The position numbers and the translations under genes were made by a program. Positions 43,510 through 45,327 of a stretch of DNA of 64,000 nt are shown here, piece after piece. Numbering within the stretch: the stretch's first letter is position 1; each line of letters opens with the position of its first letter. This stretch comes from Escherichia phage vB_Eco_T-01: sequence record PQ438391.1, one strand, 5' to 3'. Under the pieces are notes generated by a model that saw nothing but the letters and a program-made list of their open reading frames with translations, searched no databases and was not told where the DNA came from.

Positions 43510-45327
43510 ATGATTAAGAATGAAATTAAAATTCTGAGCGATATTGAACATATCAAAAAGCGTAGCGGCATGTATATTGGCTCTTCTGCTAATGAAATGC
43601 ATGAGCGCTTTCTGTTTGGTAAATGGGAAAGTGTTCAGTATGTACCTGGTCTTGTTAAGCTTATTGATGAAATTATCGATAACTCAGTAGATGAAGGTAT
43701 TCGTACTAAGTTTAAATTCGCAAATAAAATTAATGTTACCATTAAAAATAATCAGGTAACAGTTGAAGATAACGGTCGCGGTATTCCACAAGCGATGGTT
43801 AAAACACCTACCGGTGAAGAAATTCCTGGTCCAGTTGCTGCTTGGACTATTCCAAAAGCGGGTGGTAACTTCGGTGATGATAAAGAACGCGTCACCGGTG
43901 GTATGAATGGTGTTGGTTCTAGTTTGACAAACATTTTTTCTGTGATGTTTGTTGGTGAAACTGGCGATGGTCAAAATAATATTGTAGTTCGTTGTTCAAA
44001 CGGCATGGAAAATAAATCATGGGAAGATATTCCTGGAAAATGGAAAGGAACTCGTGTTACTTTCATTCCAGATTTTATGTCATTTGAAACTAATGAGCTG
44101 TCCCAAGTTTATCTTGACATTACACTGGATCGTCTCCAGACACTTGCAGTAGTTTATCCTGATATTCAATTTACCTTTAATGGTAAAAAGGTTCAGGGCA
44201 ATTTTAAGAAATATGCACGACAGTATGATGAACATGCTATTGTTCAAGAACAAGAAAATTGTTCTATTGCGGTTGGTCGTTCACCGGATGGATTTCGCCA
44301 ATTAACTTATGTGAATAACATTCACACTAAGAATGGTGGCCATCACATTGACTGTGTTATGGATGATATTTGTGAAGACCTTATTCCACAAATCAAACGT
44401 AAGTTCAAAATTGATGTAACTAAAGCACGTGTCAAAGAATGTTTGACTATCGTTATGTTTGTCCGTGATATGAAAAACATGCGATTTGATTCTCAAACTA
44501 AAGAGCGTTTGACTTCTCCATTTGGTGAAATCCGTAGTCATATTCAGCTTGACGCTAAAAAGATTTCACGCGCTATTCTAAATAATGAAGCAATTCTGAT
44601 GCCAATTATTGAAGCTGCCTTGGCCCGTAAATTGGCAGCAGAAAAAGCAGCTGAAACTAAAGCAGCTAAAAAGGCTTCTAAGGCAAAGGTTCATAAACAT
44701 ATCAAAGCGAATCTTTGCGGTAAAGATGCTGACACTACTCTTTTCTTGACTGAGGGTGATTCTGCAATTGGTTATTTAATTGATGTTCGTGATAAAGAAC
44801 TTCATGGTGGTTATCCATTGCGTGGTAAAGTTCTCAACAGTTGGGGTATGTCATATGCTGATATGCTTAAAAACAAAGAACTATTTGATATTTGCGCAAT
44901 CACTGGATTAGTTCTTGGTGAAAAAGCTGAAAACTTGAATTATCATAATATTGCTATTATGACCGATGCTGACCATGATGGTTTAGGAAGCATTTATCCT
45001 TCTCTGCTCGGGTTTTTTAGTAATTGGCCAGAATTGTTTGAGCAAGGACGAATTCGCTTTGTCAAAACTCCTGTAATCATCGCTCAGGTCGGTAAAAAAC
45101 AAGAATGGTTTTATACAGTCGCTGAATATGAGAGTGCCAAAGATGCTCTACCTAAACATAGCATCCGTTATATTAAGGGACTTGGCTCTTTGGAAAAATC
45201 TGAATATCGTGAGATGATTCAAAATCCAGTATATGATGTTGTTAAACTTCCTGAGAACTGGAAAGAGCTTTTTGAAATGCTCATGGGAGATAATGCTGAC
45301 CTTCGCAAAGAATGGATGAGCCAGTAG
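43510..45327 (+). CDS. 39: DNA topoisomerase II large subunit gp39, unsplit T2-type (GyrB-like ATPase plus TOPRIM)
   Basis: 605 aa from ATG after GAGGATAAGTG; single ORF covers the region split into 39 and 60 in T4. Confidence 0.97.
   Translation: MIKNEIKILSDIEHIKKRSGMYIGSSANEMHERFLFGKWESVQYVPGLVKLIDEIIDNSVDEGIRTKFKFANKINVTIKNNQVTVEDNGRGIPQAMVKTPTGEEIPGPVAAWTIPKAGGNFGDDKERVTGGMNGVGSSLTNIFSVMFVGETGDGQNNIVVRCSNGMENKSWEDIPGKWKGTRVTFIPDFMSFETNELSQVYLDITLDRLQTLAVVYPDIQFTFNGKKVQGNFKKYARQYDEHAIVQEQENCSIAVGRSPDGFRQLTYVNNIHTKNGGHHIDCVMDDICEDLIPQIKRKFKIDVTKARVKECLTIVMFVRDMKNMRFDSQTKERLTSPFGEIRSHIQLDAKKISRAILNNEAILMPIIEAALARKLAAEKAAETKAAKKASKAKVHKHIKANLCGKDADTTLFLTEGDSAIGYLIDVRDKELHGGYPLRGKVLNSWGMSYADMLKNKELFDICAITGLVLGEKAENLNYHNIAIMTDADHDGLGSIYPSLLGFFSNWPELFEQGRIRFVKTPVIIAQVGKKQEWFYTVAEYESAKDALPKHSIRYIKGLGSLEKSEYREMIQNPVYDVVKLPENWKELFEMLMGDNADLRKEWMSQ

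Follow-up and report, generated by a model that had tools for sequence, protein, structure and literature searches.

We identified positions 43510–45327 of the window, the whole 64-kb stretch of the phage genome that was analysed, as an intact, ancestral-type, unsplit gene 39 of a Tequatrovirus, carrying the entire GyrB/ParE-like half of the phage type II topoisomerase on a single polypeptide of 605 aa. We assign this reading a probability of about 97%. The first-pass annotation had already described a topoisomerase II large-subunit gene in one piece at this position, and the present analysis confirms that the observation is real and was correctly interpreted. Both the ORF listing and the translation return a single ORF, which runs from the ATG at 43510 through 605 codons to 45327 (+) with its sole stop codon at the end; the internal stop or frameshift that would have contradicted the earlier description does not occur in the translation. 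The open frame itself extends from 43507 to 45327 (+) and would encode 606 aa if initiated at GTG. We preferred the ATG at 43510 to the GTG at 43507 as the start codon, given its spacing to the Shine–Dalgarno sequence and the resulting N-terminus, MIKNEIK, which is that of T4, T2 and T6 gp39. The features of the region are collected in Table 1.

Table 1 Features of the gene 39 region and of the gene for the partner subunit, in window coordinates
Feature	Position	Strand	Evidence
Stem-loop AAAGGCC-TTCG-GGCCTTT, directly 3′ of the stop codon of the 39.1-like ORF and upstream of gene 39	43440–43457	+	Sequence
Candidate T4 middle-type promoter of gene 39: MotA-box-like TTTAGCTTTA (43455–43464), 12-nt spacer, TATAAT (43477–43482)	43455–43482	+	Sequence
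Shine–Dalgarno sequence GAGGA, 6 nt 5′ of the gene 39 ATG	43499–43503	+	Sequence
Gene 39, unsplit topoisomerase II large subunit, 605 aa	43510–45327	+	ORF, Pfam, PHROG, PDB, T2/T6 comparison
GHKL ATP-binding motifs EIIDNSVDE (aa 54–62), DNGRGIP (aa 87–93) and GGMNGVGSS (aa 130–138)	43669–43923	+	Motif positions; within HATPase_c
TOPRIM acidic motif LTEGDSA (aa 413–419)	44746–44766	+	Motif and T4 alignment
51-nt ‘parental’ segment, ~codons 473–490, AENLNYHNIAIMTDADHD; replaced by the ~1.1-kb MobA/bypass cassette in T4	44928–44978	+	blastn breakpoints versus T4
TOPRIM DxDxD motif MTDADHDG (aa 484–491)	44959–44982	+	Motif and T4/T2/T6 alignments
Sigma-70-like promoter match, TTTACT-17-TATAAT with upstream TG, in the spacer before rIIA.1	45328–45356	+	Consensus scan
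rIIA.1, 67 aa	45382–45585	+	Pfam PF24210 T4_RIIA1, E 1.4e-33
rIIA, 725 aa	45596–47773	+	Collinear with T4 rIIA, 97% nt identity; weak HATPase_c_3 match
Gene 52, topoisomerase II medium subunit, 442 aa	51719–53047	+	phmmer versus PDB; syntenic with T4 gene 52

The domain content of the product accounts for a complete large subunit. Pfam places HATPase_c, with the N-box and G-box motifs of GHKL ATPases, at aa 47–149 (E 2e-9, above cut-off), the DNA_gyraseB transducer (PF00204) at aa 250–384 (E 1.4e-13) and TOPRIM_C (PF16898) at aa 519–604 (above cut-off), so that the GyrB-like ATPase and the C-terminal TOPRIM portion that had been proposed for one ORF are indeed found on one chain. The same holds for the two halves of the TOPRIM active site, since the catalytic glutamate motif and the DxDxD motif lie on the same polypeptide. 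The TOPRIM core model itself (PF01751) gives no above-threshold match in gp39, and the TOPRIM assignment therefore draws on three other lines: the TOPRIM_C match, the motifs, and the alignment of aa 406–603 with topoisomerase II/ParE structures. At the family level, gp39 belongs to PHROG 543, ‘DNA topoisomerase II large subunit’ (E 2.4e-295). The order GHKL ATPase, transducer, TOPRIM is the one found in bacterial GyrB and ParE and in the N-terminal half of eukaryotic topoisomerase II. Full-length matches with E values of 1e-47 to 1e-59 were obtained to human TOP2A/B, yeast Top2 and ParE, and gp39 scores nearer to eukaryotic topoisomerase II than to gyrase.

Comparison with T2 and T6 shows the gene in the same state in both phages. 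T2 gp39 (BBF63163.1; AP018813.1, 2447–4264) is also 605 aa long and aligns without gaps, identical at 604 of 605 residues, the one difference being a leucine at the position of F70; silent nucleotide divergence amounts to ~4%, and the neighbours are the same, with a 39.1-like ORF upstream and rIIA.1 and rIIA downstream. T6 gp39 (YP_010067157.1; PDB 8YLU and related entries), likewise 605 aa and free of gaps, is identical at 603 of 605 residues, with T in place of D173 and H in place of Q526. Measured in nucleotides, the gene is ~96% identical to those of T2 and T6. A sequence search of the PDB retrieved chain 8ylu_C with 603/605 identical residues and also aligned gp39 with 8yo3_C, which is a fusion of T4 gp39 and gp60. 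Chain C of 8YLU represents gp39 of T6 (YP_010067157.1), where it is the large subunit of a two-subunit topoisomerase II (PMC11461880). [quoted passage not shown]

The T4 enzyme is the same and its gene has the same flanking genes, but the large subunit is interrupted within the TOPRIM domain, with the E motif on gp39 and the DxD motif on gp60, both of which reside in one polypeptide here. We aligned the locus with the T4 reference region at the DNA and protein levels. Residues 1–473 align with T4 gp39 1–473 with 9 substitutions, and residues 472–605 align locally with T4 gp60 27–160, with identity from gp60 residue 39 onwards. The alignment proposed in the first-pass annotation thus bears out a product that is collinear with T4 gp39 (1–473) plus, over residues 477–605, gp60 (32–160) and a single residue away from T2 gp39. 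In blastn, window positions 43178–44927 correspond to T4 5661–3911 and positions 44979–47784 to T4 2806–1. T4 homology therefore breaks at 44927/44979 in the window and at 3911/2806 on the T4 side, and ~1.1 kb of T4 sequence stands in place of the 51 nt present at 44928–44978 in the window. This T4 segment comprises the tail of gp39, mobA/60.1, the 5′ part of gene 60 and the 50-nt coding gap, which is not translated and is bypassed by ribosomes; the insertion also brings a divergent copy of the segment that it replaces, together with the (pseudo)gene mobA. Nothing in the present product corresponds to the C-terminal 43 residues of T4 gp39 or to the N-terminal ~30 residues of gp60. Gly491, encoded by GGT, is followed directly by Leu-Gly-Ser, without stop, hairpin or gap, whereas the equivalent residue in T4 is gp60 Gly46, encoded by the GGA take-off codon. 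MobA elements have been described to enter the parental, unsplit Topo2L at aa 466–473 and to end just past D490/G491 (bioRxiv 10.1101/2022.08.31.505936), and the breakpoints determined here coincide with these published limits.

The proposed explanation for the intact gene is that the MobA homing-endonuclease/bypass cassette either never entered this lineage or is absent from it now. In T4, gene 39 is truncated by this cassette, which also supplies the C- and N-terminal extensions, gives rise to gene 60 and introduces the 50-nt translational coding gap. The replaced segment also bears on how the allele may respond to MobA. In T2, the nick site of MobA lies inside the region that matches 44928–44978 (bioRxiv 10.1101/2022.08.31.505936), and T2 gene 39 has been shown by experiment to be a MobA target that is nicked and converted, as stated in the same preprint. 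Between 44928 and 44985 the window differs from T2 at 2 nt, both silent: position 44964 is C here and T in T2, and position 44983 is T here and C in T2. Given this near-identity to a target that MobA nicks, the allele is probably still cleavable, and we regard it as a probable naive homing site for MobA, judged by its sequence. The two differences fall within or beside the nick-site region, which leads to the opposite proposal that the unsplit allele resists MobA without a bypass insert, the silent changes at 44964 and 44983 having abolished nicking. If true, this would be a case of target-site escape inside a highly conserved TOPRIM motif. Far greater divergence is tolerated in the published experiments: according to the preprint, the cassette-borne copy, with 67–81% identity, failed on its own to block nicking, a block that was seen only with the 50-nt insert (bioRxiv 10.1101/2022.08.31.505936). 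It follows that two silent changes are unlikely to protect, and T6, for its part, has neither of the window bases at 44964 and 44983 and carries differences of its own in this stretch. We consider resistance quite improbable.

We searched the window for remnants or displaced parts of the cassette, which covers 64 kb of the ~167-kb genome. Outside the gene itself, tblastn gave only chance-level matches to the annotated mobA fragment and gp60.1 of T4, to the intact MobA of T4T (272 aa) and to T4 gp60, queried both whole and as its N-terminal 46 aa, and nothing better than E 0.76 was obtained with the MobA and gp60.1 queries anywhere in the 64-kb window. The 1109-nt T4-specific segment, compared with the window by blastn at word size 7 and by tblastx, matched solely at a short homologous stretch (44923–44997), and the take-off hairpin pattern GGATAGCCTTCGGGCTATC, searched with as many as 3 mismatches allowed, had no match in the 64-kb window. 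These searches bear out the earlier statements that no bypass motif and no mobA-like ORF are present, and within the 64-kb window tblastn likewise returned no gene 60-like ORF at a second location; such an ORF elsewhere in the genome, if present, would be redundant. Directly downstream, only 54 nt (45328–45381) separate gene 39 from rIIA.1, a spacer that cannot accommodate gene 60, mobA or a coding gap. Together with the absence of the T4 1.1-kb segment at the junction, this upholds the original remark about missing space, as the Pfam match to T4_RIIA1 and the collinearity with T4 rIIA uphold the order rIIA.1, then rIIA.

An intact ORF could also arise in two steps, by a ‘hit and run’ in which the MobA/bypass cassette was formerly present in the lineage and its loss remade a single ORF. 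Such re-fusion has been proposed for some Aeromonas phages (bioRxiv 10.1101/2022.08.31.505936), and the composition of the genome provides a possible route. The best record match over the 3-kb gene 39 region is 98.1% identical (teqdroes and others); for a 24-kb stretch, the top identity is 94–95%. Identity to the phage vB_Eco_Some reaches 100% along 901 nt in another part of the window, but around gene 39 it is only 96.3%. Overall, identity to relatives is 94–98% with patches at 100%, and no record in the collection is at least 99% identical over long stretches of the window. From this patchwork we conclude that the genome is a mosaic Tequatrovirus, and it is therefore mechanistically possible that a split allele was exchanged for an unsplit one by recombination without leaving a trace. 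The gene itself speaks for a different history. Known hit-and-run alleles retain the cassette-derived C- and N-terminal extensions (bioRxiv 10.1101/2022.08.31.505936), whereas no such extension sequence occurs within the gene 39 ORF, which is exactly 605 aa long and gap-free against T2 and T6; nor is Topo2L present here as two ORFs with cassette-encoded extensions. The stretch 44928–44982 belongs to the parental type: it differs from T2 by 2 nt, and its identity to the T4 copy carried in the cassette is only ~76%. With the extensions absent and the parental segment present, secondary loss is disfavoured, and we rate it as very improbable.

To place the unsplit gene 39 within the family, we determined the state of the junction in phage sequence records with a 211-nt probe (44850–45060), scoring a record as contiguous when at least 80% of the probe was covered. 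The probe matched 498 phage records, 454 of which were contiguous, among them T2, T6, RB9, RB27, wV7 and many isolates from Escherichia, Shigella, Yersinia and Salmonella; in the non-contiguous remainder the match extends only as far as the breakpoint. The T4-specific segment was found in 43 records, which include T4 and its laboratory derivatives, RB55, RB59, HY01, vB_EcoM_112 and some others. These numbers count records, with GenBank/RefSeq duplicates included, and not independent lineages. Published work likewise describes the unsplit gene as the parental state into which MobA inserted repeatedly (bioRxiv 10.1101/2022.08.31.505936). The unsplit gene is clearly the default of the genus and the split gene the exception. 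With 454 of 498 records contiguous and 43 carrying the cassette, the unsplit gene is a common and ancestral state and not a marker of a T2/T6 clade; as the state of the majority and of the parent, it excludes only the T4-like minority. The suspicion that a collapsed or chimeric assembly hides an insertion or a disrupted gene can practically be dismissed, because the same contiguous junction, 95–99.5% identical, recurs in hundreds of independently sequenced phages and neither the reading frame nor any of the catalytic motifs is disrupted.

This distribution affects one conclusion of the first-pass annotation, which had assigned the phage to a T2/T6-like group from the unsplit gene. The gene is in the T2/T6 state, yet it is not diagnostic at this frequency, and the placement is better supported by two other, independent loci. 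One is a beta-alpha-glucosyltransferase gene at 24255–25097 (PHROG 842, ‘beta-glucosyl-HMC-alpha-glucosyltransferase’, E 8.7e-89), which takes the place of T4 b-gt and segA. T2 and T6 possess beta-alpha-glucosyltransferase. The other encodes a T2-type gp38 adhesin of 263 aa at 56739–57530 (−), with matches to the Pfam GP38 adhesin model (E 8e-69) and to Gp38_N. No DNA homology was detected between this gene 38 and T4 gene 38, and the T4 annotation itself separates the gp38 adhesin from the T4-type gp38 assembly chaperone.

In its general layout the window is collinear with T4, from nrdC.4 through the replication genes, gene 39, rIIA/rIIB and gene 52 to the tail-fibre genes 38–35/34. All six homing-endonuclease elements that T4 carries in this interval are missing from it (the nrdD intron with I-TevII, mobC, mobB, segA, segF and mobA), and dam is absent from the window. 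A different GIY-YIG/Seg-like ORF is located at 12441–13064 between a-gt and gene 47; it occurs in only ~65 of 516 related records. Taken with the glucosyltransferase and gene 38, these features lend the T2/T6-like label more weight than gene 39 can, and they reflect the mosaicism that is usual in the genus.

The gene for the partner subunit is present in the same window. Residues 1–442 of gp52 match 8ylu_A and 8yo3_A, both ‘DNA topoisomerase medium subunit’, with E ~1e-297 in a phmmer search of the PDB, and the protein is near-identical to 8ylu_A. As in T6, the GyrB/ParE-like gp39 and the GyrA-like, DNA-cleaving gp52 would assemble into an A2B2 complex, gp39(2)gp52(2), that would act as an ATP-dependent relaxing topoisomerase II. 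T-even topoisomerase II is known to relax DNA and is not known to supercoil it. Relaxation activity and quaternary structure are predicted from the 99.7–99.8% identity of gp39 to its T6 and T2 counterparts, and the gp39(2)gp52(2) enzyme may by the same reasoning serve phage replication.

Signals that may govern expression were found on both sides of the gene. The MotA-box consensus is (a/t)(a/t)(a/t)TGCTT(t/c)A, from which the box-like element TTTAGCTTTA at 43455–43464 deviates by one mismatch. The hairpin at 43440–43457 was not called by the simple terminator scan, because no T-run follows it; it may stabilise the RNA or terminate transcription. In the consensus scan of the region, promoter and terminator matches were not enriched over shuffled sequences. 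The sigma-70-like match at 45328–45356 is therefore weak evidence for a promoter, and the upstream middle promoter and the hairpin stand as sequence observations only.

The split/unsplit polymorphism of gene 39 and its cause, MobA with the bypass element, have been published already, as have structure and activity of the T6 enzyme with its unsplit gp39, and as a discovery the unsplit gene matters little. Its use lies in annotation: the appropriate name is DNA topoisomerase II large subunit (gp39, unsplit), in place of the ‘DNA gyrase subunit B’ or ‘hypothetical protein’ found in many related records. Beyond annotation, the phage is a potential naive recipient of MobA and could serve, like T2, in homing or marker-exclusion crosses.

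We mapped the whole window onto T4 and compared it with the T4 annotation, which showed that all six homing-endonuclease elements of T4 in this interval are missing, namely the nrdD group I intron with I-TevII, mobC, mobB, segA, segF and mobA. Set against T4, the six deletions are clean. A 207-aa homing-endonuclease-like ORF lies exactly between the positions of T4 47.1 and 47, where T4 has no counterpart. Its product matches PHROG 10820 (E 1e-94) and PHROG 314 (E 5e-18), described as 'homing endonuclease', and its N-terminus is GIY-YIG-like, the Pfam GIY-YIG match (E 3e-4) falling slightly under the cut-off. 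Of 516 records of related phages, only ~65 contain this ORF, at 99.7-100% identity, a sporadic spread as expected for a free-standing Seg-type homing endonuclease gene.

Features of the window and sites at which T4 elements are missing
Feature	Window position	Strand	Evidence or placement
207-aa ORF, homing-endonuclease-like	12441-13064	+	Pfam, PHROG profile matches
Beta-glucosyl-HMC-alpha-glucosyltransferase, 280 aa	24255-25097	+	PHROG 842 E 8.7e-89; Pfam TAGT E 2e-10
108-aa ORF	29641-29967	+	Inserted between T4 61.1 and 61.2 positions
179-aa ORF, MotB-like C-terminus	40501-41040	+	In place of motB.1
123-aa ORF	42803-43174	+	Between 39.2 and 39.1; PHROG 622
UUCG-tetraloop hairpin (AAAGGCC TTCG GGCCTTT), MotA-box-like element, TATAAT	43440-43482	+	
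Gene 38, tail-fibre adhesin, 263 aa	56739-57530	-	Pfam GP38 E 8e-69 and Gp38_N
Gene 37, 1312 aa	57561-61499	-	ORF
Sites of missing T4 homing-endonuclease elements	5272/5275; 6551-6571; 11046-11071; 24241-25186; 31914-32314; 44928-44978		Mapping onto T4

The DNA modification genes also differ from those of T4. Whereas T4 carries beta-gt and segA, the window carries a predicted beta-glucosyl-HMC-alpha-glucosyltransferase gene, and this implies that HMC glucosylation is of the T2/T6 type (gentiobiosyl) and not of the T4 type. The T4 dam methyltransferase gene (about 900 nt) is absent by mapping at window 31372-31391, the junction of the gene 61 region and gene 56, and no Dam-like sequence was detected by tblastn throughout the window. 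Many relatives are likewise contiguous across the dam-less junction: in 292 of 519 records, a probe of 601 nt is covered to 80% or more. The adjoining gene 56 is unusually divergent, at 75% nucleotide identity to T4. The 108-aa ORF, which adjoins the 61.2 homologue, shows similarity (E 1.7e-7) to anti-DarT factor A (Pfam AdfA) over the C-terminal part of that family, and may therefore be an anti-defence gene, either truncated or paralogous.

Close to gene 39, which encodes the topoisomerase II large subunit, the 179-aa and 123-aa ORFs have no counterpart in T4 DNA. The latter shows weak similarity to goF-type families; at its position, T6 has an annotated ORF of equal length (372 nt), likened by position and length alone, and T2 one of 318 nt, likened by position alone. 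The UUCG-tetraloop hairpin lies immediately 3' of the 39.1-like ORF and is overlapped by the MotA-box-like TTTAGCTTTA; with TATAAT 12 nt further on, this arrangement looks like a candidate middle promoter for gene 39.

Many deposited relatives label gene 39 'DNA gyrase subunit B' or 'hypothetical protein', and the T2 record AP018813 lists gp39 as 'hypothetical protein' and rIIA.1, the first ORF downstream of gene 39, as 'transaldolase'. These labels are annotation errors and are better not propagated.

Genes 38 and 37 form the host-range module. The former encodes a T2-type tail-fibre adhesin, whereas the T4-type gene 38 encodes a chaperone, and the distal part of gene 37 has no DNA homology to T4.

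Within the phage collection, teqdroes and KMB22 match the gene 39 region best, at 98.1%; when 24 kb are compared, the best matches reach 94-95%, and no record is at least 99% identical to the window across long stretches. Phage vB_Eco_Some shares 901 nt at 12300-13200 with 100% identity, yet around gene 39 its identity is just 96.3%. The whole window is a mosaic.
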